Assembly (NCBI RefSeq): GCF_000196355.1
Contig: NC_007614.1
Coordinates: 600,001 to 632,000 of the forward strand
Reading direction: 5' to 3'
Source of the DNA: Nitrosospira multiformis ATCC 25196
GTDB taxonomy: Bacteria > Pseudomonadota > Gammaproteobacteria > Burkholderiales > Nitrosomonadaceae
DNA length: 32,000 nt
A model generated the notes under the pieces. The model searched no databases. It was not told the DNA's origin and was given only the letters and a program-made list of their open reading frames with translations. Positions 3,396-32,000 of this stretch are shown piece by piece (the first letter of the stretch is position 1; every line of letters begins with the position of its first letter). A program made the translations under genes and the position numbers.

Positions 3396-3798
3396 TTTTT
3401 TGCTCCTGACAAAGGGTTCAAGGAAAACAACCGGCGCAATATGACTCTCGCTCGATGCCAATACGCCTTGCACACAATAACTATAGTACATGGCGATTGA
3501 TCCGCTCGATTTTACACAGTCCGACTATATCTGTCTGCGCTTGAGCTTGAGCTCGATCGAGAGCTCTGTGCCCAAAGGCATTTCGCTTCAAAAAGACCGA
3601 CCTGGTAGCAGCGGCTGTTGATCATTAAATACGGCAAGCGTTTATCCTGGTCTTGCAGCCAATACAATGAACCCGGTACTCGACCCGAAAGGAGGCCCGG
3701 AGCAAGAACGAGCCCATCAAGGCCATGCCCGAAAACTGGTTTCGCCAAGGCCAATGCGAGGAATCAGCAAAAGAACATACACCTGATAAAAATTCACA

Positions 3799-6016: not shown

Positions 6017-6027
6017 GGAGCATGGAA

Positions 6028-10089: not shown

Positions 10090-11751
10090 CTAAATGGTTA
10101 CACCGTTCGGAATGAATCTTGGATTCATGCGATCATAGGCGAAAGAACGTCTGCTATTTCTTTGGTCGATTTCCTCTTCTATTTCCTCCAGCCTGTCCCC
10201 AAACCGCTCTATCACCTCGTGTGCTTCAGAATCGAATTGCTTTAAGTTGTACTGACCGATCGAGTTGACACAAAAATTTGTCAGAAAATAGGTCCAGGTT
10301 TGCGAATAGGCGGCTCGAAAGGTCGGCAGAAACTTCAATAAGCCAGCTCCATCAATTTCAGCGTTTTTTCCAGCCGGGGGCGGCGCATAAGCTGAATGCG
10401 GCATATTGGGAACGAATCCCGGATACTTGTATTGGTTGAAGTGAATGCAGGAATGAAAAGCAGTACATAGAAAAATGATATGACCGAGAGTCTCGCTCAG
10501 CTCTTGCCTGGATTCGAATCGGGCAGGAAACCCGGGAATCCTGCCCCGATCCTGCGCACTGATATCATGTGCCCATGCCTGAGTTTCATAGTCATCAGTA
10601 ACATCCGCTTCAGATTTGTAATATAAATCGACATATTCTTTACTGAAGCTTTGAATCGCATTCCATAACAAAATGCCATCATCGCGATAGGGATAAAAAA
10701 GATCAGGATTATCGACTTCCCGCCTCGCAATATCATCGGAGAAGGCGGATTCTTTAAAATTAAAGCTTGTCATGCCATTGGCCATGCATTGCGTCATCGA
10801 GTCATAGTCTCCGGCAAATAACTCACCGTACCGGCCGGGTCGTCCCTTCCGGTCTTTCAGGAAAGTGTGCTGGTGATTGACATTGAGCGTGTGCTGAAGA
10901 TGCGGATTCAATAGAACGTAAAGCGGGTGAGATTTATAAAGCTGTCTTCGTGAAGCCATGATAATGGCTTCCATCACGTAATGAATACGGGTTGCATGGG
11001 TATACAGGATGTGATGGTTGCCATCCGCGACCTGGGCAAACATTTTTGCTGTCAGCCAGAGATTACCGTCTTTTGACGTATAGATTGGATTATCGGACCT
11101 GTCATCCTGGTATAGCTGGATGGCAACCGGCCGCAGCATGCCGTCCGGTTGCAGAAACAACACGACGATCGGAGTCGTGACATATTGTTTTTGCCCGTCG
11201 ATATAACCCGGATTTGACTGCAATACATCCAGGACTGCATAGTCCAGGACGTATATGCGTTTTTGCGCGGTGGCAGCCATATAATCGATTTCATCAATCT
11301 GCTCTTCAAAAATTTTTCGCATTTCTGCTTCCGGCAGTTTTTCCGGTAGAGGATTCTGACGGGTTACAGCGCGCAACATCACAGGATTTACTCCAATGAC
11401 GCGTTGCAGGCCAAATATCAGGTCTTGCTGGAAGCTATCCACGAGATCGGGGTTTGGAGGACTCGCCGGAAAAAAAACATAATCCCGATAACTTTCCATC
11501 GGCTTGCCGAGCAAGTAGCGTAAAAAGGTAACCGATAGGCTGGGTAAACTTGGAATCAGCCGTAAAAGATTCATTCCCCCACGGAGCCAATATCCAATGC
11601 CCGGTATCTCCCGCCATGGCAGTTTGCGCGCGACTGCAATAGTCTCGGCATACTCATAGGCGTATTGATACTCAGCTTGCCTTTGAAGAAGATAATTCTT
11701 CCGCTCTTCTTTACCTGTATTTTCTTCATTCTGCGGTAGCTTGTTCGACAC
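10090..11751 (-). CDS. Lipoxygenase (553-aa mini-LOX, catalytic domain only)
   Basis: GTG start at 11751 with AAGGAG 6 nt upstream. Motifs are WLTAKMFAQVADGNHHILYTHATRIHYVMEAII (His247-x4-His252), AFHSCIHFNQYKY (His433, His437) and a C-terminal ...RFIPNGVTI with terminal Ile. These are the classical LOX iron-ligand motifs. Confidence 0.9.
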   Translation of the reverse strand: MSNKLPQNEENTGKEERKNYLLQRQAEYQYAYEYAETIAVARKLPWREIPGIGYWLRGGMNLLRLIPSLPSLSVTFLRYLLGKPMESYRDYVFFPASPPNPDLVDSFQQDLIFGLQRVIGVNPVMLRAVTRQNPLPEKLPEAEMRKIFEEQIDEIDYMAATAQKRIYVLDYAVLDVLQSNPGYIDGQKQYVTTPIVVLFLQPDGMLRPVAIQLYQDDRSDNPIYTSKDGNLWLTAKMFAQVADGNHHILYTHATRIHYVMEAIIMASRRQLYKSHPLYVLLNPHLQHTLNVNHQHTFLKDRKGRPGRYGELFAGDYDSMTQCMANGMTSFNFKESAFSDDIARREVDNPDLFYPYRDDGILLWNAIQSFSKEYVDLYYKSEADVTDDYETQAWAHDISAQDRGRIPGFPARFESRQELSETLGHIIFLCTAFHSCIHFNQYKYPGFVPNMPHSAYAPPPAGKNAEIDGAGLLKFLPTFRAAYSQTWTYFLTNFCVNSIGQYNLKQFDSEAHEVIERFGDRLEEIEEEIDQRNSRRSFAYDRMNPRFIPNGVTI

Positions 11752-11822: not shown

Positions 11823-13418
11823 TCACTGGACAGAGGTATTGAAGCTTGCAAGGACCGTATCGCTATCCCTTACATTACGTTTGACGATATCCGCAAGTGA
11901 GCTTGTTTCTTCAATAACGGATTGCCCAACTTTTGAAAATGTTTTTTCATTGTGTACATAAATCGATACAAGCGGGTTTGTCAGCGCATGGGTAAACGCA
12001 TCGTACCCCACCATCCGTACCATAAGGCGTCCAAGACTGAAGCCTTCATCATGATCTTCAGCAAATATGCCCACCTGCCACTCCAGATCGTCGATTCGGT
12101 CGTTATAAAGATCCTTCAGTTCCCGCTGTAGTTCGTTGTCTTCCGTCAATTCTTCGAAACTCCGTAAACGGGGCATGCTGAACGCTTCGCGATAGTCATT
12201 GAAAGGGCGCAGTCTGGCCTGCCGTCCCATTGCGATGGACCGCTCCATGACACTTCGATTATCGTCAGCAATGGGCAGCGGATAGAAAAAATAATCGTGC
12301 GTATTGTGAAGACCAATACGGCCCGCTCTTTGCATCGATGCAGCCGTTATCAACCTTCCAATGCCGTGTTGAATTACCAGCGGGGTATTGTTGCGAAACG
12401 CATCCAGCGGATAGGACTGGTTACCGACTCTGTAGCTTTCCGGGACCATGGAATGCCACCGGTACAGGAGGTTGAATTCCAGAGAGATCCAGTTGGTGCG
12501 GTACCAGCGTTGCCTTTCCGCCAGATCAGGGGATGGGTCGAGGGTAAAACCAAACTGTGTAAAACGCGAAACGTAATCTGCCAGAACCACTTTGATCAGC
12601 AGCACGACCATGATGTTTCTTGCCGTCTGAAACAGGCGTTCATCATCCCATTTTGGGTAAGCTTCTTTTAGCAGGTCACAAATCCGGTTGTGTTCACGCA
12701 GCATCACGGTATTCATTATGGTATAGCCAACCGATGAGTTGCCGTGCTCCAGTCCGGCGGCAAACACGCGTTTCAACCGTTCCTCGGGGACATTGCTAAA
12801 AACAAAATCCAGAACCTCGCGGGGATGCAGCTTCTCGAATTCTTTATCTGCGAATACCCAATTGCCCGTGGTCGTTTCCTCCACGTTAAAAAGGTAGGGA
12901 GGAAAAATTTCTCCACCGATAATCTGGGACTTCAGCTTCCCATCTTTTTTCAGCCGTAAATAATGCGTGATTTCTTCCCGCAAACCATAGATCTGGCAAA
13001 GATCGATTTCATGGTTCGATGTATTTTTCCGGCGATCGCGAAAATCCGTCCTGAGGAAACTATCGGTAAACCACTGGGCAAAGAAAGCAAACAGTATGCT
13101 TGTATCGACCGAAGGTATTTCCTTGTTCTCTTTTCTTCGCCATAAATCCACGACTCTTTGCATGTCCGGAAGATTCTGATCGCCTTCCGCCTCCGCCAGG
13201 TGGCGTCCGGTAAATGACTTGTCAGTCAACGATTGCCATGTCGTATAAGATGAAGCCAGCGAGAACGGCCGGGGCCGAGGATTGGTGGAATAGGCTTGCC
13301 AATTGATAAAAGCGTCACTGATAAACCGCCGTAACCATGTTATCCGCGAAACAATTCTGACGAGCCAGGGAAATCTGTTTGCAATCCGAAACAGGATCGG
13401 AAAAAAGAATTCATACAT
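11823..13418 (-). CDS. Cyclooxygenase-like haem peroxidase (animal haem peroxidase / PGHS-like family)
   Basis: Long colinear similarity to vertebrate COX as I recall it: FAFFAQWFTDSF, LKKDGKLKSQIIGGEIFPP, MLREHNRICDLLKEAYPKWDDERLFQTARNIMVVLLIKVVLADYV, EFNLLYRWHSMVP, RLRPFNDYREAFSMPRLRSFEELT. The gene sits 71 nt upstream of, and co-directional with, the lipoxygenase. Confidence 0.9.
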   Translation of the reverse strand: MYEFFFPILFRIANRFPWLVRIVSRITWLRRFISDAFINWQAYSTNPRPRPFSLASSYTTWQSLTDKSFTGRHLAEAEGDQNLPDMQRVVDLWRRKENKEIPSVDTSILFAFFAQWFTDSFLRTDFRDRRKNTSNHEIDLCQIYGLREEITHYLRLKKDGKLKSQIIGGEIFPPYLFNVEETTTGNWVFADKEFEKLHPREVLDFVFSNVPEERLKRVFAAGLEHGNSSVGYTIMNTVMLREHNRICDLLKEAYPKWDDERLFQTARNIMVVLLIKVVLADYVSRFTQFGFTLDPSPDLAERQRWYRTNWISLEFNLLYRWHSMVPESYRVGNQSYPLDAFRNNTPLVIQHGIGRLITAASMQRAGRIGLHNTHDYFFYPLPIADDNRSVMERSIAMGRQARLRPFNDYREAFSMPRLRSFEELTEDNELQRELKDLYNDRIDDLEWQVGIFAEDHDEGFSLGRLMVRMVGYDAFTHALTNPLVSIYVHNEKTFSKVGQSVIEETSSLADIVKRNVRDSDTVLASFNTSVQ

Positions 13419-13762: not shown

Positions 13763-15859
13763 ATGTCCCCTTCCCACCAGCCCCCGGAAAGTCAGCCCAC
13801 TGTCAAAGTTTTTGACCCGCTGGAGCTTGACCGTTCCGTGATTGCCATTCCTCTTCTGCGGCAGATGGAGGAGGAATTAAGAGGAATTGAAGCTTTTCGG
13901 GCTGCACATCCGTTCCCCGAAGATGGAGAATTCAATACGCTGATCGAATACAACAGGGAATTCGATGGAAAGCCGGAGGAGATGCGGGAGTTGGTCGTCA
14001 AGATGGCCGAAGAGGCGGCAGCGAAGGCATTGGAAGCATCGAAAAAACGAGTCGAAGAGAGCAAGGAGATAGCCCCAGCGGGAACACGGGGCACGCCGGT
14101 GCGCGGTGGCTCGACAAGGAGTCGGGCTGATATTTACGGAAATCCTTTTTTGATGGAGCAACGGCGCGACAAGGATCTCCAGGAAGCGGTCGGGAATCAG
14201 AAAATCGGACCGGTCTCGGAGGACGGCGCCTATAGCTTTGCCAGCTTGCACGCAACCATAATACGGCGAATATTAGCCGCAAACGAACGGCTGTCACAGG
14301 GTGAGGAAGCTTCAAAGAAACCACCTATCCTTCGGATCCACCCTACACGTTATGAGGTCATCATCGATATCAATCTCGAATATCCGGGTGGACGGGAAGA
14401 GGCCCGGCGCTGGATTTACCAGAATATCGAAGAGGCCAAGAACAAAGCGAAAGTGTACGACGCGGGTCAGGATATTCATCTCAAGAAGGAACAGCGCGAA
14501 AGCGGCTACATGTTCGCCTGCCTGGAAGCTCGTACCATCAAGGCGCTTATCGAACTCGATGTTGCCCAGGCAAAGGTGAAGGCGCGCGAAGCTCAGGCAA
14601 AAGTGGGGGATACGAGCCATGAAGCGAAGGCTCGTGCAGCAAAAATCAACCCGGCCAAGTTTCGCGCCATCTTCCGCATATGGCCGGATTTCGAGATTTC
14701 TGCCTCCATCACCCACTCCATCGCCACGATAAAAGCCGATGCAGCGCAGAATTCTTTTTCCGCGCGGGGCGCCGGAATCACCTGGGCGGTGATGGATTCA
14801 GGAATAAAGCAGGATCATGGGCACTTTCGCAAACACAACAATGTCGATAAAGACTCCACATGGCATAAAGACTTCACGGCGGACGGCAGCGATCCGTTCA
14901 ACGATGAGAACGGGCATGGAACGCATGTGGCAGGCATCATTGCCGGCGAATGGCGTCCGGCAGGTGCACCAGGAGGGACACAAGTGGCCGCGCCAGCGGA
15001 GGTTTCACCTCCGGCGGGCGATTCCGCCGCACCATCCCGAATTCCTGTAGCGGTTTCCCGTTATCTGAAAACGGGTTCCGAAGATGTCGAATACCAGCAG
15101 ATAAAACTCGTGGACGGCATCAGCGGGATGGCGCCGCGCTGCAAGCTGATAAGCCTGCGGGTGTTGGACGAAAACGGAAAAGGGAGTGTGAGCAATCTCA
15201 TTGCGGCCATCGCCCATGTGCAGGAGATCAACGGTTACGGCCGAAAGCTTCTGATCCACGGAGTCAACATGAGCCTGGGATATACCTTCGAGCCCGAATG
15301 GTTCGCCTGCGGCCAGAGTCCGCTCTGCGTGGAGGTTGACCGGCTGGTAAAAACCGGCGTCGTGGTCGTGGTCGCCGCAGGCAATACAGGTTACGGCACG
15401 TTGAAGGCCGCCACAGGCGCGCTCTCGGCAGGAATGGCGCTGACCATCAATGATCCCGGCAATGCGGAACTCGCCATTACAGTGGGTTCGACCCACCGCG
15501 ACATGCCGCACGTTTACGGGGTTTCCTATTTTTCCTCGAAAGGCCCGACAGGCGACGGCCGCCTCAAGCCGGACCTCGTCGCGCCCGGCGAAAAAATCAT
15601 CTCCTGCGCCACGGGTCAGTTAAAAAGCGAGGGCGCACAGGGGATCGAATGCGACTACGTCGAAACCAGCGGCACGAGTATGGCAGCTCCCCATGTCAGC
15701 GGCGCGATCGCAGCGTTTCTCTCGGTGCGCACCGAGTTCATCGGCAAGGCAGAACGTGTTAAAGAGATTTTCGTTGATACGACTACTGACCTGCGGCGCG
15801 ACCGCTACTTTCAGGGCAGTGGTCTCGTTGATCTGATGCGCGCTATTCAGTCGGTGTGA
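13763..15859 (+). CDS. Subtilisin-like serine protease (S8 family) with a ~330-aa N-terminal extension
   Basis: The Asp/His/Ser triad motifs are in canonical order: WAVMDSGI (D345), HGTHVAGIIAG (H385), GTSMAAPHVSGAIAAF (S639), plus oxyanion AAGN. SD AAGAGG lies 5 nt upstream. The N-terminus MSPSHQPPESQPT... has no signal peptide. The N-terminal third is charged and coiled-coil-like. Confidence 0.85.
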   Translation: MSPSHQPPESQPTVKVFDPLELDRSVIAIPLLRQMEEELRGIEAFRAAHPFPEDGEFNTLIEYNREFDGKPEEMRELVVKMAEEAAAKALEASKKRVEESKEIAPAGTRGTPVRGGSTRSRADIYGNPFLMEQRRDKDLQEAVGNQKIGPVSEDGAYSFASLHATIIRRILAANERLSQGEEASKKPPILRIHPTRYEVIIDINLEYPGGREEARRWIYQNIEEAKNKAKVYDAGQDIHLKKEQRESGYMFACLEARTIKALIELDVAQAKVKAREAQAKVGDTSHEAKARAAKINPAKFRAIFRIWPDFEISASITHSIATIKADAAQNSFSARGAGITWAVMDSGIKQDHGHFRKHNNVDKDSTWHKDFTADGSDPFNDENGHGTHVAGIIAGEWRPAGAPGGTQVAAPAEVSPPAGDSAAPSRIPVAVSRYLKTGSEDVEYQQIKLVDGISGMAPRCKLISLRVLDENGKGSVSNLIAAIAHVQEINGYGRKLLIHGVNMSLGYTFEPEWFACGQSPLCVEVDRLVKTGVVVVVAAGNTGYGTLKAATGALSAGMALTINDPGNAELAITVGSTHRDMPHVYGVSYFSSKGPTGDGRLKPDLVAPGEKIISCATGQLKSEGAQGIECDYVETSGTSMAAPHVSGAIAAFLSVRTEFIGKAERVKEIFVDTTTDLRRDRYFQGSGLVDLMRAIQSV

Positions 15860-15897: not shown

Positions 15898-17214
15898 ATG
15901 AATGAAATCGCGGGAATTCCTTATGTGGAAGCAAGCTTCGACAAGAACGGTCAGGGTCCTGAAGAGGAGGTCGCTCTGCCTGCCGGGGTGACCGACCTTA
16001 TCATCATGTCGCACGGCTGGAACAACAACAAGTCCAAGGCAGAAGATCTGTATAACGGTTTTTTTGCAAGCTTTGCCGCTGCCGCCCAGCCAAACGATTT
16101 ATCCGCCCGAAAGCTTGTCATTCTGGGGGTATTCTGGCCATCCAGGGAATACGATACGTCTGTTGCCGTTTCAGGTACTCCTGCCACTGGGGGAGGCGGC
16201 GCCGCCCTCGGGGGTGGAAACGGCGGTTCGATCAAGCGGCTGGAAGAGAAACTGGACGACATGAAAGAAATCTTCACGGAGGCGGAACAGAAGAAACTTC
16301 TTGATGAGGCGAAAGCATTGCTTCCGGATCTCGAGGAAAAAGCCTCGGTCCGGGATCTATTTGTGAACAAAATGCGCTCCCTGCTCGATCCGAGCGCTGC
16401 AGGAAAAGAGGATGCGTCCAATATCTTCTTCAAGGATGGCGGCAACGAACTGATGAAAAACCTGAAGGCCGAGGAAGAGGATCTGGGCGAGGATGTCGCG
16501 GGAGGCGGGGCAGCGTTGCCGCTCGGGGTGAGCACTCCTGCGCGGGCAGAAGGCGGAGCGGCGGGATTGGTAGAAATTCTTTCGGGATTCAAGGCAGCTG
16601 CCATAAACCTGCTCAACTATACCACCTACTACGAGATGAAGACGCGATCGGGAACCGTTGGAAAGAACGGGGTTGCCCCGCTGATCGATAAACTTGCCTC
16701 GCAGGTCGAACGCATCCATCTGATCGGGCACAGCTTCGGCTGCCGTGTCGTCACCTCGGCGGCACTCGGCTCGAAAACCGACAAGATAAAAAGCATGATA
16801 CTCCTCCAGGCGGCCTTCTCCCAGAACGGTTTTTCAAAAATTGAACAGGGATTTTACCGTGCGATCGTGGATAATCATCGAGTCAAGGGCCCGGTCCTTA
16901 TCACGCATACGCCCAATGATAGAGCAGTAGGTCTGGCGTATCCGCTCGCATCTCGCATCAGCGGCGACAAAACCATGGCGTTCGGCGATAAGGATGATCT
17001 GTTTGGAGCGATGGGCCGTAATGGAGCGCAGAAAATGGAGCAGGGCGAAGCCGTCGAAGGCAAGCTGCTTTCCGTAGGCGGCCCCTATGCTTTCAAGGCC
17101 AATACTTATTTCAATCTCGAAGCCAGCGATTTCATCAAGAACCACAACGACATAAAAGGGAAGGAAGTTGGCTACGTGGTCCGCAAGGTCGTCGCAACCG
17201 CAGGAATGGGCTAA
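15898..17214 (+). CDS. Alpha/beta-hydrolase-fold protein (DUF900-like), function unknown
   Basis: AAGGAG lies 7 nt upstream. Motifs are IIMSHGWNN (oxyanion-type HG), nucleophile elbow LIGHSFG (S279), then THTPNDRAVG (Asp) and KNHNDI (His) in S-D-H order. A Gly/Ala/Glu-rich ~160-aa insert is present. No signal peptide. The gene starts 38 nt after the S8 gene. Confidence 0.7.
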   Translation: MNEIAGIPYVEASFDKNGQGPEEEVALPAGVTDLIIMSHGWNNNKSKAEDLYNGFFASFAAAAQPNDLSARKLVILGVFWPSREYDTSVAVSGTPATGGGGAALGGGNGGSIKRLEEKLDDMKEIFTEAEQKKLLDEAKALLPDLEEKASVRDLFVNKMRSLLDPSAAGKEDASNIFFKDGGNELMKNLKAEEEDLGEDVAGGGAALPLGVSTPARAEGGAAGLVEILSGFKAAAINLLNYTTYYEMKTRSGTVGKNGVAPLIDKLASQVERIHLIGHSFGCRVVTSAALGSKTDKIKSMILLQAAFSQNGFSKIEQGFYRAIVDNHRVKGPVLITHTPNDRAVGLAYPLASRISGDKTMAFGDKDDLFGAMGRNGAQKMEQGEAVEGKLLSVGGPYAFKANTYFNLEASDFIKNHNDIKGKEVGYVVRKVVATAGMG

Positions 17215-23867: not shown

Positions 23868-25124
23868 CTATGGGAGGATTTTCTCGCCTGCCATCAATTG
23901 CTCGACCGATTCCCGCTCGCGAATGAGATGAATGCGGTCGCCATCGATCATCACCTCGGCGGCGCGTGGACGCGCATTGTAATTAGAGCTCATGCTCATG
24001 CCATAAGCGCCGGCCGACATGACAGCGAGCAGATCACCCTGCGCCAGCGCCAGGTGGCGGTCATGCCCAAGAAAATCGCCGGTTTCGCATACCGGACCGA
24101 CAACCTGATAGGTTTTTGCATCCATTTCGTTGCGCGCAACCACCGGAAGGATTTCATGGTAAGCCTTATATAAGGCCGGGCGCATCAGGTCGTTCATGGC
24201 TGCATCGACAATGGCGAAATCGCGATGCGGCGTAGGCTTGAGATACTCGACGGTTGTAAGCAGTACACCCGCATTGCCCACCAGCGATCTTCCCGGTTCG
24301 ATCAGGATTTTCTGCCTGCGGTTGCCCACCACGCTGCGTAACGCCTCGACATATTCCCGTGCCGAGGGGGGATTTTCCCCGGCATAACGTATCCCCAGGC
24401 CGCCGCCCAGATCGAGGTGCTCGATCTCCAACCCTTGCGCCTCCAGCCGGTCGAGCAGCCCCAGCATCTTCTTGCAGGTTTCGATGAAAGGCGCCAGTTC
24501 GGTCAATTGCGAGCCGATATGGCAATCGAGACCGGCCACCCGTACATTGCCAAGCGCCTGCGCAGAAGCATAAAGCGCCTCCGCCTCATCGAAAGGAATG
24601 CCGAACTTGTTTTCCTTGAGTCCGGTGGAAATATATGGGTGCGTTTTCGCATCCACATCCGGGTTCACCCGCAGGCTCACCGGCGCAACCTTGCCCATTT
24701 CTCCGGCCACGCGGTTCAGCCCATGCAACTCCGCTTCCGATTCCACGTTGAAGCACAGTATGCCCGCTTCGAGCGCCGCTTTCATTTCCGCAGGCTGCTT
24801 GCCCACACCCGAAAAAACGATTTTCTGTGGATCGCCCCCCGCCTTCAATACCCGCTGAAGTTCTCCCCCGGAGACGATGTCGAAGCCGCTACCCAGGCGG
24901 GCGAGCAGATTGAGAATGCCAAGGTTGGAATTCGCCTTGACGGCGTAACAGACCAGATGATCGCGTCCTGCGAAGGCATCGTCGAATTCACAGTAGGCTG
25001 TAGTCAGCGCCGCGCGCGAATAGGCATAGCAGGGCGTGCCGAATTCAAGCGCGATGCGCTCCAGTTGCACCGACTCTGCCCACAAATGCCCATTGCGGTA
25101 ACTGAAGGAAGGAAAACCGCTCAC
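23868..25124 (-). CDS. lysA: Diaminopimelate decarboxylase
   Basis: Motifs are GTPCYAYS, PLP-Lys context CYAVKANSN, GGGLGIRY, EPGRSLVGNAG and CETGD. The ORF track extends to 25208, but that extension overlaps a convincing small lipoprotein gene. GTG 25124 (VSGFPSFSYRNGHLWAE) gives about 418 aa and a GTGA overlap with the upstream stop. Confidence 0.9.
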   Translation of the reverse strand: MSGFPSFSYRNGHLWAESVQLERIALEFGTPCYAYSRAALTTAYCEFDDAFAGRDHLVCYAVKANSNLGILNLLARLGSGFDIVSGGELQRVLKAGGDPQKIVFSGVGKQPAEMKAALEAGILCFNVESEAELHGLNRVAGEMGKVAPVSLRVNPDVDAKTHPYISTGLKENKFGIPFDEAEALYASAQALGNVRVAGLDCHIGSQLTELAPFIETCKKMLGLLDRLEAQGLEIEHLDLGGGLGIRYAGENPPSAREYVEALRSVVGNRRQKILIEPGRSLVGNAGVLLTTVEYLKPTPHRDFAIVDAAMNDLMRPALYKAYHEILPVVARNEMDAKTYQVVGPVCETGDFLGHDRHLALAQGDLLAVMSAGAYGMSMSSNYNARPRAAEVMIDGDRIHLIRERESVEQLMAGEKILP

Positions 25125-25255
25125 TTCTTTTTCTCTGTATCGGGAATTTTTTGTGGCTGCGCCGGAGCCGGCTCCTGCGGAAGGTAGAGGGGCCCCTTGA
25201 GGCCGCATGCGTTGAGCAGCAGGGCTATTAGGACGGCAGACGAGAGCGCGCGCAT
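25121..25255 (-). CDS. lptM: Small lipoprotein of the LptM/YifL (LppL) family, 44 aa
   Basis: Not in the ORF track (<60 aa). The product is MRALSSAVLIALLLNACGLKGPLYLPQEPAPAQPQKIPDTEKKK. It has a lipobox followed by the CGLKGPLY(F/L)P signature I recall from E. coli YifL/LptM and Pseudomonas LppL, which classically sit just upstream of lysA/dapF. Confidence 0.7.
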   Translation of the reverse strand: MRALSSAVLIALLLNACGLKGPLYLPQEPAPAQPQKIPDTEKKK

Positions 25256-25454
25256 GAGACGATATGGGAAAAATGGAGCTGGAATACTAACATGGGGGAT
25301 AAGAGGTCTCTCTGTTTTCTCAACAACCCTTCGCTGAACGCTTTATTCAGAAGTAAAAACGGCGCAACTTCATCAGTTCAGACCTTAAGTATAAGTAGCC
25401 ACACCTAATCAATAACGAGACAACAAAAAACTTGAAACAAATCCCGAAATCAAC

Positions 25455-26666
25455 TCATACACTAATATTAGAATTTCGGAATAATTGATCAGCAAAAGCA
25501 GCGCTCGTGTATGAAGCATACTTCTGCCAAGTATCATTTTTTTCAGCGTCTGCGAAGTCACAAACGGATTTAATGATCATAGCTGTCAGATTTGGAATTG
25601 AAGTATATTCAGCAGCTGCCATAACAGCGTATGCCTCCATCTCAATTGCTATCAACTCTCGGTGCTGTTGAATTGCAATTAATCTTGCGGATCTATCATC
25701 AGCAATCACACTTGCACCGGACGCCATGGGGCCAATATGAACCTTTAGCTTGCCTCCTGGCACTTCTTCCGACCATCCTTTTCGGATACCATTCATAACG
25801 GATTCGTCGTTTGCGAGATCAGAAGCCACCTGACTCAATGCACTGTTAAGTGGTACCTGACGAGGGGCTGCGTGAAATACAGGTGATCCATTCGAATCCA
25901 GTCCGTGCTTCCCACTACCCCAATCCCAAGTAGGGTCGGCAACGATAATATCCCCGAGACTGCATTTATCTCGAATCCCGGCACAAATTCCTACCATTAA
26001 CAAAATCTTAGGCTTAAACATCAAGGCCAACTTAGAGGCAACCGCAGCGGATGAAGGCATACCCTTCCTGTTGGGGCTGACAGCTACTACCGAAATGTTG
26101 CTATCTATTCTGGGTATTTTTCCATAATGGTAAGTAAGAGGGTCGTCTTTAATACGCTTCTGAATCCATTGATAAGGCAGATTGAGAACTGCGTCTAATT
26201 CTGGATTTCTTAGGGCGGTTACAATGACTACATCTACCTGTTCATCACGTGCTAATCGTTGCGAATCGTACTTTGCACGTCCGATCAGTATTTTCTTCCA
26301 TTCATCGGAATCAGAATGGTACTGACAAAGGATAGCACCTCTCTCAATTACTTTTGTATATGCTGATTCTATGAGTTCTTCTCTTCCAGTAATGAAAAGG
26401 ACACTTGCAGGCAGTTTGACCTTTTCGTCAAGCCTGATCATGTCCAAAAACGTTATACCCCCTTCATTATCAGGTTTCCCTCCTATTGCCGCCGGTAAAT
26501 GAAGATCTATTATCAGTAGGTCGTAATCTTGCCTTCTCAGAAGAATCCGCGCGGCCTGCGCTGTAGTTTCATGTTTGACTCCAGCACAACTTATCCCTGC
26601 ATCAGCTAGCACATTAAATATTTCTTCTACCTTTCTATATTCGTCGTCGACAATCAATATTTTCAT
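25455..26666 (-). CDS. dtcC: Response-regulator receiver fused to a purine-nucleoside-phosphorylase/nucleosidase-like (PNP_UDP_1) domain: DtcC-like effector
   Basis: REC domain: MKILIVDDE, phospho-acceptor context DLLIIDLHLP (D54 at 26505..26507). PNP-like C-terminal domain (about aa 145-403): VDVVIVTAL, KILLMVGICAGI, IGPMASGASV, LIAIEMEAYAV (E342/E344 at 25635..25643). No DNA-binding domain. The start overlaps the upstream stop as ATGA. Confidence 0.8.
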   Translation of the reverse strand: MKILIVDDEYRKVEEIFNVLADAGISCAGVKHETTAQAARILLRRQDYDLLIIDLHLPAAIGGKPDNEGGITFLDMIRLDEKVKLPASVLFITGREELIESAYTKVIERGAILCQYHSDSDEWKKILIGRAKYDSQRLARDEQVDVVIVTALRNPELDAVLNLPYQWIQKRIKDDPLTYHYGKIPRIDSNISVVAVSPNRKGMPSSAAVASKLALMFKPKILLMVGICAGIRDKCSLGDIIVADPTWDWGSGKHGLDSNGSPVFHAAPRQVPLNSALSQVASDLANDESVMNGIRKGWSEEVPGGKLKVHIGPMASGASVIADDRSARLIAIQQHRELIAIEMEAYAVMAAAEYTSIPNLTAMIIKSVCDFADAEKNDTWQKYASYTSAAFADQLFRNSNISV

Positions 26667-27136
26667 TTTCTAGCCAGCGCGTTGCTTTCAGCAATTAATT
26701 GCTTTAGGGCGCTCCTCCAGCCCTCTTGAGCTGAGTTGTAATAAACAAAACCCTTGAATGGAGGCGAATAGCGGCTTTTGAGATCGGCTATTAGTTGCTC
26801 AAGTGATACTCGCTTTGGGGTTTCTCCAAATGAGTCAAACATCGTTACGACAATCGTAGGTACGTTTATGGAGCGAAGGCGCATTTGCGCCAGCAATTCT
26901 CTACCAGCAAAACTTTCGGGAGCTCCTCCACTTGGTTCCTGTTGTGATATGTCATATGTAGGCATGCTCATATCAACCAACACAATATCCAGTACTTCAC
27001 TTCCGGCAATTAGAGCTTTAAGTCCACTATTTAAAGATTTAGCGAGTTGCACATTCGCGGCCGGAAATTCCAAAGAAATAAATTCTTCGATTTTCTTTGA
27101 CTTATCTTCATCATCTTCAATGACCAAGATATTCAT
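26663..27136 (-). CDS. dtcB: Stand-alone receiver-domain protein without output domain: DtcB-like
   Basis: MNILVIEDDEDK, phospho-acceptor context LDIVLVDMSMP (D55 at 26972..26974) and TIVVTMF. 157 aa from ATG 27136. The ORF track uses TTG 27151. Either start lies inside the 3' end of the upstream gene. Confidence 0.75.
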   Translation of the reverse strand: MNILVIEDDEDKSKKIEEFISLEFPAANVQLAKSLNSGLKALIAGSEVLDIVLVDMSMPTYDISQQEPSGGAPESFAGRELLAQMRLRSINVPTIVVTMFDSFGETPKRVSLEQLIADLKSRYSPPFKGFVYYNSAQEGWRSALKQLIAESNALARK

Positions 27137-30100
27137 GGTCTTTCTTCTCAAGTTTGAAATTCACCTCGACTACAAATGAGTCTTCCAAGTGATAGAAATC
27201 AAGCTTCGGCTCTTTGTATATCGGTGAATTAATCGTACGCCATATCTTATGTAAACCACTTCGGCCTTCACGCTGGGCACGGCGTGGAGACTCATCACTT
27301 CTAAGCGAATCACGGAGCTTGCTGAGTTTGTCGCGTTCCGCCTGAGTAACTTTCGCAGGAGCGAGATTATTAGATATTCTCGCATTGAAAACGCCATTAG
27401 AAAAAGAAAGCTCTGCTTTTACAGTCAATTCATCCATCTCCAATCCCGACCTCAGCACAGCGTTTTCAAGAAGAACATGAAATACATACACCATTCCGTC
27501 CAAAGTGCGACCTGGCATTAAAGGGGTGTCTCGTGAGAGAGAGACTGAGGCACCATTCCAACCAGTTGCGTTGAACATGGTGTTTTTTACCATATTGAGG
27601 GCAATGTGAAAGGGAAAATCGGCAGCACAGTCCTGTCGGTCATATACTTCGCTCCTTTTAAACCAAGAAATAACTAGACCTAGCTGATTTTGAACGTTCG
27701 TTTTTGCTCTTCCTACAGCGTTTAATAAGTCGTTAATACCTGGGGCAGGGACACGATTTAGATGATTTGTTAATTTAACGAAAGGCTCCATCAGGCGGGC
27801 TCGTATGTCCGTATCTAACACGTATTGAACATTACGCAAATTTAGATCAGTTTTTTCCCAGAGAATGTCTACGTAATAATTTACGAATTCATCCATATTT
27901 GTAAAAGCTTTATCCTGCTCTTGGACGAATTTTCTTTCCCATTGCGATGAGCGATAAACAAATAGCGCGTTCTTGTTCTCGCCCGAATCCTTGAGTTCGT
28001 GAACTATTCTGATCTGAATAAGTTCATCTTTAAGATACTCAATAACACTATCGAACTCGCTTGAGAAAGTATCTAGTGCATCTAAAATTAGCTGCCACTC
28101 AGCCTGATATTCACTATAGCCCTTCTCTCCGTGACCCCAATATTGGTTACGTATATAGGATTTGCTCCCTTCTTCCCGTGAGGTTATGAGTCGCTCATCT
28201 GCAACTGGTTTACGGAGAGTATTACTTAATGTTCCGTGTCTAATTGTAGTGCTGAGGTATGCGTTAAGCCCATGGTCCCCACGTAAAAATTCATTTGTGA
28301 CTTCCGAAAATAGGGCTTCGAATTGTACGTCGGACTCGGAGCCCATATCGAGATTGAGATTAAGTGTTTGTATCTTCGATAGGGCTAAAGGGACGGAGAT
28401 CGAGTTCTCCTTGGCGAAAACCGCACCTAAATTAGTGATGAAATTTTTAGCAAATGATTGTTCTGGTTTTAATACTGACGTTTGAGATGAGCTTTTATAA
28501 CGAATGTATGAATCTTCAAGTTTCGTCTTCAGTGATTTTTTTATTGCTTCGATTTCTACATAAACTTTGCTCTGCTCAATGAGCCTAGTCCCCTTCGCTA
28601 TTTCCTGCTGTTTTACACGCTCTTTGATTTCATCGAAGTAAACTACCTCACCTTCCGGATCTAATTCGGCAAGTATGCGGCAAACTTTAATTCGAGCCTC
28701 TTCAATCTCTCTTGTTCCAGAATAAAGAATAGTATGTCTCATAATTTCTGGTGTCCAAATGTTTCTGAGATAGGCTATAACAAAAGGCTTCCCGAACTCT
28801 TCGATTCTTTCCGCAAGGTCTGATGGTTCATTTATCCGATTATTTACTTGGAATAGTTCAAACGAATATCGTAACTGCGCAATCTTTTCCGGTCCGCAGT
28901 ACAACGTGTAGAGTTGGAACAATAATGATGTCGATATTGATCTTGGCCAATCTGCGGGTTCTTTGAGTGCATCAGCAACCTGTTTGATAGGCAATAAGGT
29001 CGGCACATTCTGATTCTCAATATATGCTGCAACCGTTGTATCGACTGCTTCTGAGATGCGATCTAATTTCAAGAGTGCAAGTGCCGCTCCCCCTCGGGCT
29101 CGAATATTTTCGACGCCGGTTGTGTTCACAATTAACCACTGGAAATGTTCTGCAGCTCGTATGGGGCTACCAAAAGCCAGATGATAAACCGCTAGGTATT
29201 TCTGCTTTCTTATCTCGCTTATCGGCAGGGGTTCGTCGATCTGCCCGCTACTTACCAGGTCATACACGGCGCGCGTATAGGGAAATAATATTTTTAACTG
29301 CTCATCGTTAAGAATTTTAATTTTGGCTTGACCATTTGCCGCCACAGCACTAAAAGGCGTTACGTGAGGTTCCCTTATAAAGATATCCCTAAGTGGATCG
29401 GGTGGGAATGCAGCTTGTTCCGGACGTAGTTCATATCGAGTTACAGCCTCAAGATAGTGAACCCAAGAGTGTCCATAGAAGCGTTCGGATAAAGTAATGA
29501 GTGCAAAGGCCGCGGAGTAGGTATTCGTAGATAGACTGAGCACCTCGTGTAAGCTTCTAAATGCTTCCTTAAGAACTCCTTGTTGGTCGGGGTAGGAAAT
29601 CCCAGCTTGCAAGCAGGCCTTCAATCTCATAACTTGTATGGACATATCCTCCGGGAAGTCACGTAGATATGTCTCCGAATTTTGCGCCATGAGTGGGTAT
29701 TCGCCTTTTGTATATAATTCTATTAACTCTGCCCTTTGCTTGTTATAGACAGTAACAGTACTAGGCACGATATCTAGCCCCCTAAGTACGCCTGCCAGAC
29801 GAATGTCCTGCGTCCTTCTAAAGATAGCGACTAGTGGCTTTTCAATTACCGGTATCATTCCGGTTGAAATTGCTCGAGTTCGAGCCGCTGATTGAAGGAT
29901 AAATACCAAGGTTTCGTAGTGATCGATAACACAGGACTGGGCTTCCACGTATAGAGTGGCAGGTACATCATCAGTATGTATATGAGATAGCTCAAATAGT
30001 TTCGCTCTCAAATAGCTTTGAAGTATTGGATTGCTGTAGTCCCCAAACATCCTTAACAGCTCGGTCTTTAGATAACCTTTAAGTCCCGTTGCTTCAATTC

Positions 30101-30680
30101 GTTTTCCAATAAAACGTATAATCCAAGGCATCAGCTGATGGTCCTTGCACTCGTCCTCATACAGCTGCCCTAGTTTCCTGGCTTCTTCAATACCCTCCCA
30201 GAATTGTGCCGCAGCAATCTTGTTTTGTATGAGCCAGATTGAACATCCAAATTTTCTCTCAATAACATTAAGAATTTCATTGCATTTGCTCTTTGAGTTT
30301 CGGAGAAGGGAGCGCTCATATTCTTCGCGGAGATGTGTGAAGTCTTTCAATTCCTCACTAAATTGAAGGCAGCGGCAAACGCCCCAAATAAGCTCGTTAA
30401 ACGGCCCAGCGGGTTGATATAGCGCTGGCTTAGAAAATAGCTCTGAGGGTTTAACTGGAAACGCGGGACCGTGAACGAAATCTAGAGCGTTTTTTTGGCG
30501 AAAAATTCTTGGAAAGAAGGTGAAGAGCTCATCTACAGATGTTTGTATTTTTAGCTTTGCGATTTCTAAATGCCCTCGCATACGGATAGCACTCGCGATC
30601 TCGCCAATAATTCTGTCTTGTCTAGCTGATTGCTTATTTCTTATCTTTTTTGGATTTCTAATCCGCTTTGAGCTAGCCAT
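27117..30680 (-). CDS. dtcA: 1187-aa cytoplasmic sensor protein with C-terminal GHKL / histidine-kinase-type ATPase: DtcA-like
   Basis: The last ~130 aa carry an N-box-like VFHVLLENAVLRSG (Asn1073 at 27462..27464), a G1-like ARISNNLAP and a G2-like EGRSGLHKI (27243..27269). The preceding ~1050 aa contain no TM segment and look helical and repeat-like (for example ARGGAALALLKLDRISEAVDTTVAAY). No SD is obvious at ATG 30680, so the start is moderately uncertain. Confidence 0.75.
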   Translation of the reverse strand: MASSKRIRNPKKIRNKQSARQDRIIGEIASAIRMRGHLEIAKLKIQTSVDELFTFFPRIFRQKNALDFVHGPAFPVKPSELFSKPALYQPAGPFNELIWGVCRCLQFSEELKDFTHLREEYERSLLRNSKSKCNEILNVIERKFGCSIWLIQNKIAAAQFWEGIEEARKLGQLYEDECKDHQLMPWIIRFIGKRIEATGLKGYLKTELLRMFGDYSNPILQSYLRAKLFELSHIHTDDVPATLYVEAQSCVIDHYETLVFILQSAARTRAISTGMIPVIEKPLVAIFRRTQDIRLAGVLRGLDIVPSTVTVYNKQRAELIELYTKGEYPLMAQNSETYLRDFPEDMSIQVMRLKACLQAGISYPDQQGVLKEAFRSLHEVLSLSTNTYSAAFALITLSERFYGHSWVHYLEAVTRYELRPEQAAFPPDPLRDIFIREPHVTPFSAVAANGQAKIKILNDEQLKILFPYTRAVYDLVSSGQIDEPLPISEIRKQKYLAVYHLAFGSPIRAAEHFQWLIVNTTGVENIRARGGAALALLKLDRISEAVDTTVAAYIENQNVPTLLPIKQVADALKEPADWPRSISTSLLFQLYTLYCGPEKIAQLRYSFELFQVNNRINEPSDLAERIEEFGKPFVIAYLRNIWTPEIMRHTILYSGTREIEEARIKVCRILAELDPEGEVVYFDEIKERVKQQEIAKGTRLIEQSKVYVEIEAIKKSLKTKLEDSYIRYKSSSQTSVLKPEQSFAKNFITNLGAVFAKENSISVPLALSKIQTLNLNLDMGSESDVQFEALFSEVTNEFLRGDHGLNAYLSTTIRHGTLSNTLRKPVADERLITSREEGSKSYIRNQYWGHGEKGYSEYQAEWQLILDALDTFSSEFDSVIEYLKDELIQIRIVHELKDSGENKNALFVYRSSQWERKFVQEQDKAFTNMDEFVNYYVDILWEKTDLNLRNVQYVLDTDIRARLMEPFVKLTNHLNRVPAPGINDLLNAVGRAKTNVQNQLGLVISWFKRSEVYDRQDCAADFPFHIALNMVKNTMFNATGWNGASVSLSRDTPLMPGRTLDGMVYVFHVLLENAVLRSGLEMDELTVKAELSFSNGVFNARISNNLAPAKVTQAERDKLSKLRDSLRSDESPRRAQREGRSGLHKIWRTINSPIYKEPKLDFYHLEDSFVVEVNFKLEKKDHEYLGH

Positions 30681-30829
30681 GTCTGAGATAAAAGTAGTTT
30701 AAATTCTTGATTCAATCTTCCAGATGGGGCATTAGGATACTTTAGAAGGCATTCAAGAAGCCTCAGACGTGTAAACCTTTAACCAGCTTATCGAGAAAAT
30801 ATCTAATGCAGAGACACCTCCATGGGGTT

Positions 30830-31699
30830 TTACCCCATTTCTCCGGACGGTTTGGTTAAGCCTAAATCCTGCTTCTGACGCATTTCCAGCTGTCGCCGTT
30901 TTCGCGGATTATGGAATCGCTCGATATAGTCGAAGATATCTGTGCGCGCCTCAGCCCGGGTTCGATACTGGCGACGATATACTCGCTCCCGCTTGAGCAA
31001 GCCAAAGAAGCTCTCTGCTGGCGCGTTGTCGGCACAACTACCGACAGCGCTCATGCTGCAAATCAGATTGTGTCCTTGCAGGAAGCGTTGATACTCGTCA
31101 CTGGTAAACTGACAGCCGCGATCTGAGTGCAGGATGACGGGAGTTTTTGCCTCACGCTGCCAAAGCGCCATGAGTACGGCCTGCAGCACCAGTTGCGGAT
31201 CCTGGCAGTGGCTCATTGACCAGCCGACCACGATGCCCGAGTACAGGTCCACGACCACGCACAGATAAAGCCAGCTTTCCTGAGTGCGCACATAGGTTAT
31301 GTCCGTCACCCACCGGCTGTTGGGCTCACTTGCTGTAAAGTCCCGCTGCAAGTGATTGTGCACATTCTCCGGTCGAAGGCCACAGACCTTCTTGTGCCAG
31401 CGTTTACGCTGCGGGATGCCATACAACCTCTGCTGGCGCATCAGCCGTGCTATGCGGTTCAACCCACACGCCTCGCCTTCATAACGCAACTCCTTCCAGA
31501 CTCGAGGACTGCCCATCACCCCATCGCTGCCATCATGAATCTTCCTGATGCGCTCCAGCAAACGCCGGTCATCATGCGCTCTCTGACTCAAGGGGCGATC
31601 TCGCCAATCATAGTAGCCGCTGGTTGATACATGCAGACAACGACACATCAGGCGAATGGGGAAGGCATCGCGGCAGCGTTCGATCATGCGATATCTCAT
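30830..31699 (-). CDS. IS3-family transposase OrfB (rve/DDE integrase core)
   Basis: DDE triad contexts are WVTDITYV, ILHSDRGCQFTS and CADNAPAESFFGLLKRE. Confidence 0.9.
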   Translation of the reverse strand: MRYRMIERCRDAFPIRLMCRCLHVSTSGYYDWRDRPLSQRAHDDRRLLERIRKIHDGSDGVMGSPRVWKELRYEGEACGLNRIARLMRQQRLYGIPQRKRWHKKVCGLRPENVHNHLQRDFTASEPNSRWVTDITYVRTQESWLYLCVVVDLYSGIVVGWSMSHCQDPQLVLQAVLMALWQREAKTPVILHSDRGCQFTSDEYQRFLQGHNLICSMSAVGSCADNAPAESFFGLLKRERVYRRQYRTRAEARTDIFDYIERFHNPRKRRQLEMRQKQDLGLTKPSGEMG

Positions 31700-31983
31700 T
31701 TCGACGCTTTCGCGAATAACGCCGCCGCTTCTTTTAAAAAATCACGCTCCTTCCTAACTTGGATCAGCTCACGTTTGAGCGCAGCCATCTCCTCATCACG
31801 GGGCCTGCCCTGACCCTGAAAGGCTTTATTACCGACCGAGCCCATTTCCCGGCACCACCGGCTCAGCATATTGGGATCAATCCCCAGATCACGCGCGATC
31901 CGGCTTGCCGGCACATTGCCAGACCGAACTAGTTGTACCGCTTCCTGCTTGAACTCCGCTGCATATTTCCTTCGCGTTGCCAT
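31696..31983 (-). CDS. IS3-family transposase OrfA (HTH DNA-binding)
   Basis: MATRRKYAAEFKQEAVQLV...IARDLGIDPNMLSRWCRE plus a leucine-zipper-like C-terminus. GGAGG lies upstream of ATG 31983. The stop overlaps the orfB ATG as ATGA. Confidence 0.9.
   Translation of the reverse strand: MATRRKYAAEFKQEAVQLVRSGNVPASRIARDLGIDPNMLSRWCREMGSVGNKAFQGQGRPRDEEMAALKRELIQVRKERDFLKEAAALFAKASK
31735..31741 (-). promoter_or_regulatory. Candidate -1 programmed ribosomal frameshift heptamer T TTT TTA (orfA to orfB fusion)
   Basis: In the orfA frame the minus strand reads GAT TTT TTA AAA GAA, an X XXY YYZ heptamer. A -1 slip reads FFKRSGGVIRESVE and enters the orfB frame upstream of its ATG. Confidence 0.55.
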
Positions 31984-32000
31984 GACACACCTCCTGACTC

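Follow-up and report, generated by a model that had tools for sequence, protein, structure and literature searches.

A previously catalogued Detocs cassette with a predicted receiver–PNP effector in the nitrifier Nitrosospira multiformis ATCC 25196

Phage resistance by abortive infection, with cleavage of ATP and dATP to adenine, has been demonstrated for the Vibrio Detocs system only (Rousset et al. 2023, bioRxiv 10.1101/2023.01.24.525353). In this system, defence was abolished by the H645A mutation of DtcA and by the mutation of D58 in DtcC (VaDtcC), while the mutant in the DtcB aspartate was toxic, which is the basis of the published hypothesis that DtcB acts as a phosphate buffer (bioRxiv 10.1101/2023.01.24.525353). 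As the preprint presents it, phosphotransfer from DtcA to DtcC and DtcB is deduced from the mutants only. A purine nucleoside phosphorylase-like (PNP) effector is found in 80% of the Detocs systems described there.

The same study lists N. multiformis ATCC 25196 among the Detocs genomes in its Table S5, with a PNP effector and the gene identifiers 2606883034 (dtcA), 2606883033 (dtcB) and 2606883032 (dtcC), and its Table S4 classes this dtcC, in a Detocs context, with the Cap17-clade PNPs (bioRxiv 10.1101/2023.01.24.525353). Since Table S5 of the discovery paper names the dtcA, dtcB and dtcC of this genome, the Nitrosospira operon is already known and is not new.

The window analysed here, a stretch of 32,000 nucleotides, belongs to the chromosome of N. 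multiformis ATCC 25196, and the DtcA and DtcC that it encodes are 100% identical to the proteins of the strain. Three overlapping genes encoding 1187, 157 and 403 amino acids occupy positions 25455-30680 of its minus strand:

dtcA, 27117..30680, minus strand: 1187 aa, soluble sensor histidine-kinase-like protein (ORF and PADLOC PDC-M60A)
dtcB, 26663..27136, minus strand: 157 aa, stand-alone receiver, presumed phosphate buffer (Response_reg and PDC-M60B)
dtcC, 25455..26666, minus strand: 403 aa, receiver–PNP effector (PNP_UDP_1, Response_reg and PDC-M60C)

An earlier note, drawn from the sequence alone, had described three co-directional, overlapping minus-strand genes, and the ORFs lie as it placed them, with the dtcA stop codon 20 nt inside dtcB and an ATGA common to dtcB and dtcC. 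The motifs it quoted are all present, namely VLLENAVLRSG and EGRSGLHKI in DtcA, IEDDED and LVDMSMP in DtcB, and LLIIDLHLP, ILLMVGICAGI and IAIEMEAYAV in DtcC. All three ORFs are intact; DtcB has 157 aa from its ATG, and the mechanical call, which starts at the TTG at 27151 further upstream, has 162 aa. The genes are contiguous, with zero intervening genes, in keeping with the Detocs adjacency rule, which asks for homologues of dtcA, dtcB and dtcC side by side and tolerates no more than one foreign gene among them (Rousset et al. 2023, Methods). The A-B-C order is preserved in all 15 complete related genomic loci (15/15), the neighbouring genes being different in each.

The PADLOC search that the note had proposed returned all three proteins, through the models PDC-M60A for DtcA (1.8e-81), PDC-M60B for DtcB (1.8e-40) and PDC-M60C for DtcC (2.3e-110). 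The same models are matched by the validated Detocs proteins of Vibrio alginolyticus and Enterobacter cloacae. No 19-residue window of transmembrane-grade hydrophobicity is found in DtcA, DtcB or DtcC except in the conserved PNP core strand, and these windows and the domain search agree with the claim of a system with neither membrane sensor nor DNA-binding output. The identification as dtcA-dtcB-dtcC with a REC-PNP effector is thus borne out by PADLOC, homology, aligned residues, the predicted kinase-type fold and Table S5. The locus is very probably a complete and intact Detocs cassette with a PNP effector, horizontally acquired and now located between an IS3 element and lptM-lysA.

The cassette is framed by two different kinds of neighbour:

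lptM (25121-25255) and lysA (23868-25124), 23868..25255, minus strand: core-genome flank (LptM_cons, Orn_DAP_Arg_deC)
IS3-family element, 30807..32000, minus strand: orfB 30830-31699 and orfA 31696-31983 (rve, HTH_21, HTH_Tnp_1)

The Detocs genes have a GC content of 43% and their flanks one of 58%, with sharp borders, and the GC3 of the Detocs genes is 37-40%, against 67% in lysA (overall GC 58%). The lptM-lysA pair lies directly downstream of dtcC, with the border of the low-GC cassette at ~25300. On the other side, the IS3 element lies directly upstream of dtcA, with a host-like GC of 55-56%, and continues past the window edge; its inner end at ~30807 is an inferred position. Regarding the proposal that the cassette is carried on a mobile island, the compositional break and the upstream IS3 speak for it, whereas no sign of an integrase, att repeats, an empty site or a second border turned up for the cassette in this genome, and the island is only partly shown. 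In the nearest relative, Detocs has a type I restriction-modification system on one side and, on the other, an integrase, resolvases and a toxin-antitoxin pair.

The position of the IS3 element, ~126 nt upstream of dtcA, raises the alternative that the operon is Detocs by descent, yet silent or misregulated after the element displaced its native promoter, with the genes surviving only on account of how recent the insertion is. The orfAB genes of the element stand directly upstream of dtcA, and the element is multicopy in the genome, as indicated by the three draft assemblies of the strain, which break at the IS3, 170-280 nt upstream of dtcA. Furthermore, no sigma-70-like promoter came out of a scan of the ~126 nt that separate dtcA from the IS3 end, overall counts being at chance level, so that the insertion may have changed or shut down dtcABC expression. 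However, a consensus scan is weak evidence, blind to other promoter types and to outward promoters borne by the IS. In addition, the three ORFs are intact with every invariant family residue retained, and the sequence is identical in three independent assemblies. A silent cassette is regarded as quite unlikely.

Three parts of DtcA can be delimited in the predicted structure and the family alignment:

DtcA residues 1 to ~650, 28731..30680, minus strand: all-helical, TPR-like repeat array, presumed sensor (AlphaFold secondary structure)
DtcA residues 782-828, 28197..28337, minus strand: two helices with the invariant block G804-L805...S810...R814-H815-G816
DtcA residues 1040-1177, 27150..27563, minus strand: Bergerat-type ATP-binding (CA-like) alpha/beta domain (model secondary structure)

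DtcA carries the Pfam family PF27260 'Y4jQ' according to precomputed annotation, a family also carried by a relative of the VaDtcA N-terminus. All five sub-models of PDC-M60A match it, the best being PDLC04723. The DtcA family comprises 2947 representative clusters, and the best 150 of these are nearly all 1140-1190 aa long (median 1161 aa) and align end to end. The earlier note had pointed to a very large sensor region that may recognise a different trigger; against this family its size is nothing special, and the short outlier is Vibrio DtcA, at ~975 aa. In the AlphaFold model (pLDDT 84.9), the stretch described in the note as about 1050 aa of helical, repeat-like sequence ahead of the ATPase-like boxes divides in two: the repeats extend to residue ~650, while residues ~650-1040 make up a second helical region, distinct from the repeats, which includes a small beta insert and contains the invariant H815. 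Foldseek matches residues 1 to ~650 to TPR scaffolds (IFT-A, Ctr9 and the SKI complex), and conservation across the family is lowest in these residues.

H815 (codon 28236-28238) is presumed to be the phospho-accepting histidine of DtcA. It is 100% conserved among 163 DtcA relatives, in which it is the sole column with His above 60%. This key residue was not named in the earlier note. hhalign aligns the H815 block with 'RIRHGTL' in P0295, a relative of the VaDtcA branch, and H815 would be the equivalent of Vibrio H645, an indirect assignment because the VaDtcA sequence compared ends at residue 399. In the CA-like domain, N1073 (codon 27462-27464) corresponds to the N-box and G1142/K1145 to a G2-like box; N1073 and G1142 are, like H815, invariant in the 163 sequences. 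The position of the G1-box Asp, the residue that contacts adenine, is occupied by N1104 and, throughout the family, by Asn or Ser.

The modelled segment 780-1187 (pLDDT 80) gives 141 Foldseek matches in the PDB at E<=1e-3, the best 50 of which are all histidine-kinase cores or PDKs. By fold only, the C-terminus of DtcA is thus predicted to be of the histidine-kinase type, and the kinase assignment rests on this predicted fold together with the motifs. From the Pfam families named beforehand as a check, PNP_UDP_1 and Response_reg were recovered in the operon (DtcB falling just under the gathering score), but neither HisKA nor HATPase_c was found in DtcA by Pfam and NCBIfam search. Likewise, the DtcA family profile matched none of the PDB chains at E<=10, and hhalign gave no significant alignment of DtcA with the EnvZ core.

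The kinase module is atypical in its spacing, in its G1-box and in its hairpin. H815, on a helix of its own, lies 258 residues ahead of N1073, more than twice as far as is canonical; in EnvZ, the distance from H243 to N347 is 104 residues. In the DHp-like hairpin beside the ATP-binding domain, no His is conserved across the 163 sequences of the family. One reading of these departures is that the DtcA family uses a non-canonical kinase architecture, in which H815 would serve as an HPt-like relay or the ATP-binding domain would be divergent. This is unlikely; if true, Detocs would represent a phosphorelay sensor of a new class, and this would hold for the family at large rather than for this locus in particular.

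Another reading, and a very unlikely one, is that DtcA is a pseudokinase or performs other chemistry (for example, phosphorylation of Ser/Thr as in PDKs, or nucleotide binding and nothing more) and governs DtcB and DtcC by a different route, with the histidine being structural or part of a relay. It could draw on the same spacing, on the family-wide replacement of the G1-box Asp by Asn or Ser, on the hairpin without its histidine, on the silence of every sequence method regarding HisKA and HATPase_c, and on the presence of PDKs among the best fold matches, over ~400 columns. On the other hand, neither the N-box Asn nor the G2-like glycine varies in the family, and the canonical acidic residues of receivers are retained in both DtcB and DtcC. 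Moreover, the Vibrio DtcA-His and DtcC-Asp mutants lose defence and the DtcB-Asp mutant is toxic, which is the pattern that genetics would show for a His-Asp phosphorelay. No biochemical characterisation of the DtcA kinase module was found in the literature searched, and its departures from canonical histidine kinases merit structural and biochemical study at the family level.

DtcB is a receiver without any second domain. Its match to Pfam Response_reg (1.8e-06) is just below the gathering score. The receiver Asp, D55 (codon 26972-26974), lies within LVDMSMP and is aligned to LLDMTMP in the E. cloacae protein (EclDtcB) and ILDMSLP in VaDtcB. DtcB aligns over its full length with the validated E. 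cloacae DtcB (29% identity, E 3e-25) and shares 27% identity with VaDtcB (E 1e-09).

DtcC joins two domains:

DtcC receiver, residues 1 to ~125, 26292..26666, minus strand: Asp D54, codon 26505-26507
DtcC PNP domain, residues ~140-397, 25476..26249, minus strand: GICAG core, M343-E344, catalytic Asp D370

Pfam recognises PNP_UDP_1 (2.4e-17) and Response_reg (4.1e-07, just above the gathering score) in DtcC, which aligns end to end with the validated VaDtcC (27% identity, E 5e-33). These domain assignments, like that of DtcB, stand well clear of chance. D54 is aligned to D58 of VaDtcC, and D370 (codon 25557-25559) to D353, the catalytic residue tested in Vibrio; both are 100% conserved in 119 sequences. 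The PNP mutant that had been suggested was E342A/E344A; E344 is invariant in these sequences and E342 is not, and the equivalent of Vibrio D353 is D370. The PNP domain shares 30% identity over 74 residues with a Cap17 PNP fragment (E 1e-10), and DtcC matches the PADLOC PN-superfamily effector model (1.2e-21).

Among solved structures and NCBIfam models, those nearest to the C-terminus of DtcC are MTA/SAH nucleosidases, which could suggest a housekeeping module, in which a two-component pair regulates such an enzyme in the salvage of nucleosides or quorum signals and not in defence; this is highly improbable, given that DtcC misses the MTAN equivalog cut-offs (57.2 versus 169 bits for NF004079 and 22.3 versus 73.8 for TIGR01704), its PNP belongs with the Cap17 immune clade and the PN-superfamily effectors, the cassette is compositionally foreign with neighbours that change between genomes, and the cassette of the nearest relative lies in an island of restriction-modification and integrase genes. 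A plain MtnN/Pfs identity for DtcC is rejected on the same cut-offs and on the fused receiver, the protein not being single-domain. A canonical transcriptional two-component system was discarded, as DtcA has no HisKA/HATPase_c match and a DNA-binding domain is absent from both receiver proteins, and so was CBASS, as the adjacent genes are lptM-lysA and IS3, with no cyclase, and the best PADLOC match of DtcC is PDC-M60C and not a CBASS effector.

Under the preferred reading, an intact Detocs cassette, phage infection would be sensed by DtcA through its N-terminal helical-repeat array of ~650 residues. The atypical kinase module would then autophosphorylate H815, for which the fold and the invariance are seen here and the chemistry is taken from Vibrio H645A. 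The phosphoryl group would pass from DtcA to D54 of DtcC, the homologue of Vibrio D58, and phosphorylated DtcC would switch on its C-terminal Cap17-clade PNP domain. [quoted passage not shown] The loss of nucleotides would starve the infected cell, and the infection would abort. According to the published hypothesis, the bare receiver DtcB, through D55, would drain stray phosphate from DtcA and so prevent autoimmunity.

The main value of the analysis is one of validation, with Detocs and the roles of its genes correctly recognised from raw sequence; the biological gain is small, since the genome table of the discovery paper already includes the operon. What the locus offers is an intact, predicted ATP-depleting abortive-infection system in an ammonia-oxidising nitrifier, on a compositionally foreign 5.5-kb cassette beside a multicopy IS.

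The closest described system is Detocs of V. alginolyticus UCD-32C, which has the three genes in identical order, a full-length DtcC composed of REC and PNP, and a bare receiver as DtcB. Its DtcA is likewise a soluble helical-repeat protein with a terminal kinase module, and a relative of the Vibrio branch has the R-H-G-T-L H-box. Nitrosospira DtcA is ~200 aa longer (1187 versus ~975 aa, the latter calculated from the operon coordinates), and its N-terminal 400 residues have no detectable similarity to the VaDtcA N-terminus. Unlike the Vibrio system, the Nitrosospira one, with its predicted defence function, resides in a betaproteobacterial ammonia oxidiser.

The Detocs-hydrolase system of E. 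cloacae JD6301 is also related. Its DtcB is closer to Nitrosospira DtcB than Vibrio DtcB is, and the N-terminus of EclDtcA, detectably similar to many members of the DtcA family, belongs to PDLC04723, as does Nitrosospira DtcA. However, its effector is a transmembrane alpha/beta hydrolase, whereas that of Nitrosospira is a PNP domain. Cap17, from the type III CBASS of E. coli KTE188, belongs to the same immune PNP clade, with a GI[CA]AG core, and homology predicts the same conversion of ATP to adenine and ribose-5'-triphosphate. Cap17 is activated via a cyclic-oligonucleotide sensor domain in a CBASS operon, whereas the Nitrosospira PNP is fused to a receiver, with predicted control by phosphotransfer. 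Finally, the canonical pairs EnvZ/OmpR and HK853/RR468 share with this system the histidine-kinase-type fold, as modelled, and CheY-like receivers with an acidic pocket; unlike them, Nitrosospira Detocs has no membrane sensor, DNA-binding output or G1-box Asp, and possesses an extra buffer receiver.

The operon that the earlier note had read as a Detocs anti-phage system consists, as it described, of three co-directional, overlapping minus-strand genes. The reading frame of dtcA ends 20 nt into dtcB, and dtcB and dtcC overlap in a common ATGA. In line with the proposed soluble DtcA and lack of a membrane sensor, no transmembrane-grade hydrophobic segment was detected in DtcA, DtcB or DtcC by a hydrophobicity scan. 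The genes are the following:

27117-30680 (-): dtcA, sensor kinase-like protein, 1187-aa ORF
26663-27136 (-): dtcB, stand-alone receiver, 157 aa counted from the ATG (the mechanical ORF, with an upstream TTG start, has 162 aa)
25455-26666 (-): dtcC, REC-PNP effector, 403-aa ORF

The identification of this operon as Detocs is correct. In the PADLOC comparison that the earlier note had suggested, the three proteins form one candidate system, PDC-M60A/B/C (E = 1.8e-81, 1.8e-40 and 2.3e-110, respectively). This label was decoded by scanning the validated Detocs proteins of Vibrio alginolyticus (Va) and Enterobacter cloacae (Ecl) (Table S1, Rousset et al. 2023, bioRxiv 10.1101/2023.01.24.525353) against the same PADLOC library. 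The PDC-M60C, B and A models were matched by VaDtcC, VaDtcB, EclDtcB, the EclDtcC receiver and the EclDtcA N-terminus; therefore, PDC-M60 is Detocs under another label.

Direct alignments with the validated proteins agree with this assignment. VaDtcC aligns end to end with the DtcC found here (27% identity, E 5e-33), and DtcB aligns over its full length with EclDtcB (29% identity, E 3e-25) and also with VaDtcB (27% identity, E 1e-09). Mutation of VaDtcC residues D58 or D353 abolished defence in Vibrio (Rousset et al. 2023), and these residues correspond in the alignment to D54 and D370 of DtcC. Across 119 DtcC family members, both positions are 100% conserved, and so are M343-E344 in the EME motif. 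The domains expected in Pfam were found only in part: Response_reg and PNP_UDP_1 (2.4e-17) in DtcC and Response_reg as the single domain of DtcB, with no relevant domain in DtcA, for which NCBIfam likewise gave no match.

Three other readings of the operon were considered and rejected. The PNP domain of DtcC is nearest to MTA/SAH nucleosidase in NCBIfam, but its score of 57 bits is far under the equivalog cut-off of 169, which rejects a housekeeping MTAN. DtcC is not regarded as a CBASS effector either, its neighbours being lptM-lysA and an IS3 element and its best PADLOC match PDC-M60C. An ordinary transcriptional two-component system is dismissed by a DtcA without HisKA or HATPase_c and receiver proteins without a DNA-binding domain.

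The sensor region, described in the earlier note as very large, turned out to be ordinary for the family. An exhaustive profile search collected 2947 representative DtcA clusters (1917 of them at E<=1e-30); nearly all of the best 150 are 1140-1190 aa long and align end to end. The median length in the family is 1161 aa (5-95% range, 1112-1187 aa). It is the tested Vibrio DtcA, of about 975 aa by operon arithmetic against 1187 aa here, that is the short one.

The AlphaFold model of full-length DtcA (pLDDT 84.9) comprises three regions. The first, about 650 residues long, is an N-terminal helical-repeat array; a helical part bearing H815 and then a C-terminal alpha/beta domain follow. In Foldseek searches with this model, the N-terminal array matched TPR scaffolds, whereas histidine kinases and PDKs were the matches for the C-terminus. 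When residues 780-1187 were modelled separately (pLDDT 80.2), 141 PDB matches were obtained at E<=1e-3, the best 50 of which are histidine-kinase cytoplasmic cores (GacS, HK853, RetS, ZraS, DivL, KinB, AgrC, BceS) or PDKs, each with probability 1.00. The sequence routes to a kinase were all negative. Besides the lack of a kinase domain in Pfam and NCBIfam, phmmer gave nothing meaningful for DtcA against all PDB chains, a 25-sequence family profile gave 0 matches at E<=10 against the same chains, and hhalign of the family with the verified EnvZ core was not significant (probability 0.3%). The putative histidine-kinase-type module at the DtcA C-terminus is therefore recognised from fold and motifs.

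This module is atypical across the whole DtcA family and is not detected by Pfam HisKA/HATPase_c or by PDB sequence profiles. In the alignment of 163 full-length members, H815, N1073, G804, G1142 and W1006 are 100% conserved, R814, G816 and K1145 reach at least 99%, and H815 is the only column with His above 60%. The invariant H815 is 258 residues from the N-box Asn (N1073), the G1-box Asp position (N1104) is Asn or Ser family-wide, and the hairpin adjoining the ATP-binding domain carries no conserved His. The module is located as follows:

27246-28238 (-): atypical kinase module, DtcA residues 815-1145, with traits common to the 163 family members

An indirect bridge suggests that H815 may be equivalent to H645, the residue tested in Vibrio. 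P0295, a relative of the VaDtcA N-terminus, shares the Pfam family PF27260 ('Y4jQ') with the DtcA found here, and hhalign places its YLGRRIRHGTL on the YLSTTIRHGTL around H815. The His of this motif lies near residue 624 of P0295; allowing for about 18 residues of N-terminal offset, this position comes close to Va H645.

Among possible mechanisms, the published Detocs model (Rousset et al. 2023) has the best support. The analysis shows the homology, the residue conservation, the fold and the organisation of the operon; we infer each biochemical step, and any expression of the operon in N. multiformis. DtcA would sense infection and autophosphorylate, here at H815, and the phosphoryl group would then pass to D54 of DtcC. 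[quoted passage not shown] The literature searched reports no trigger for any Detocs. Conservation within the DtcA family is lowest in the N-terminal region, and no similarity to VaDtcA was detected there, making a trigger different from that of the Vibrio system plausible.

The Detocs cassette is compositionally foreign, with a GC content of 43% and a GC3 of 37-40% (58% and 67% in the adjoining lysA) and sharp borders near 25,300 and 30,800. The core genes lptM and lysA lie 3' of dtcC, and an IS3-family element of host-like GC lies directly upstream of dtcA:

23868-25124 (-): lysA, 418 aa, 4-nt overlap with lptM
25121-25255 (-): lptM, 44-aa lipoprotein, lipobox LNAC
30807-32000 (-): IS3-family element, outer end past the window edge
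30830-31699 (-): IS3 orfB
31696-31983 (-): IS3 orfA

The mechanical 446-aa 'lysA' ORF is over-extended, the true genes in 23868-25255 (-) being lptM and lysA. Three independent draft assemblies stop 170-280 nt upstream of dtcA, at the IS3 element, which argues that this element is multicopy in the genome.

The status of 'mobile island' claimed for this locus is only partly shown in the N. multiformis genome. The sharp foreign-GC cassette and the upstream IS3 element speak for it; however, no tRNA gene was found at the borders, no direct or inverted (att-like) flanking repeats were convincing, and the second border lies beneath or past the IS3 element, which extends off the window. Promoter and terminator signals were at chance level, and Rfam gave no match in the window. 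PADLOC gave no match to defence genes for ten further unannotated ORFs, so no defence island is visible within the window.

Several genes elsewhere in the window deserve mention. A lipoxygenase gene (10090-11751 (-); Pfam 1.1e-57) is adjacent to one for an animal-type haem peroxidase (11823-13418 (-); 6e-43). In this ammonia-oxidising bacterium the two form a eukaryote-like pair of oxylipin genes, in a stretch whose GC of 46-50% is under that of its surroundings. Just downstream, on the opposite strand, are a subtilase (13763-15859 (+); Peptidase_S8, 5.8e-42) and a 438-aa protein (15898-17214 (+)) with weak alpha/beta-hydrolase matches only. The overlapping co-directional ORFs at 4712-6016, 5998-7542 and 7539-8744 (+) (434, 514 and 401 aa), without Pfam or PADLOC match, appear to form an operon, and a tyrosinase-domain protein (2454-3491 (-); Pfam 1.4e-35) is preceded by several small ORFs without family match.

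In related genomes, 15 of the 15 complete loci retain the A-B-C order with tightly packed genes, and each has different neighbours (Hachiman-type helicase, nSTAND3 NTPase, GlnRS, c-di-GMP enzymes, LysR regulator, toxin). The closest non-identical relative (68% DtcA identity) is on the metagenome contig L020 (1-19386; JGI Ga0486844_000479), where Detocs directly follows a complete type I R-M system enclosing two DUF1016/YhcG genes and precedes genes for a tyrosine integrase, two resolvases and a toxin-antitoxin pair of the PIN/RHH type. The L020 locus is a compact mobile defence island. Foreign composition, varying neighbours, the maintained gene order and the L020 context are together the behaviour of a self-contained, horizontally mobile defence cassette.

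The operon at 25455-30680 is a catalogued member of a known family, already identified by the discoverers of Detocs. N. multiformis ATCC 25196 gene 2606883032 is listed as a Cap17-clade PNP in a 'Detocs' context (Table S4, Rousset et al. 2023), and a Cap17 fragment shares 30% identity with the PNP core of DtcC. Table S5 gives dtcA, dtcB and dtcC of this strain as 2606883034, 2606883033 and 2606883032, with PNP as the effector. These three genes are consecutive, the DtcA and DtcC found here share 100% identity with N. multiformis ATCC 25196 proteins, and no second REC-PNP gene was found within the window; therefore, the catalogued operon and this one are the same. The sole mildly novel angle is the non-canonical kinase module of DtcA, which belongs to the whole DtcA family.
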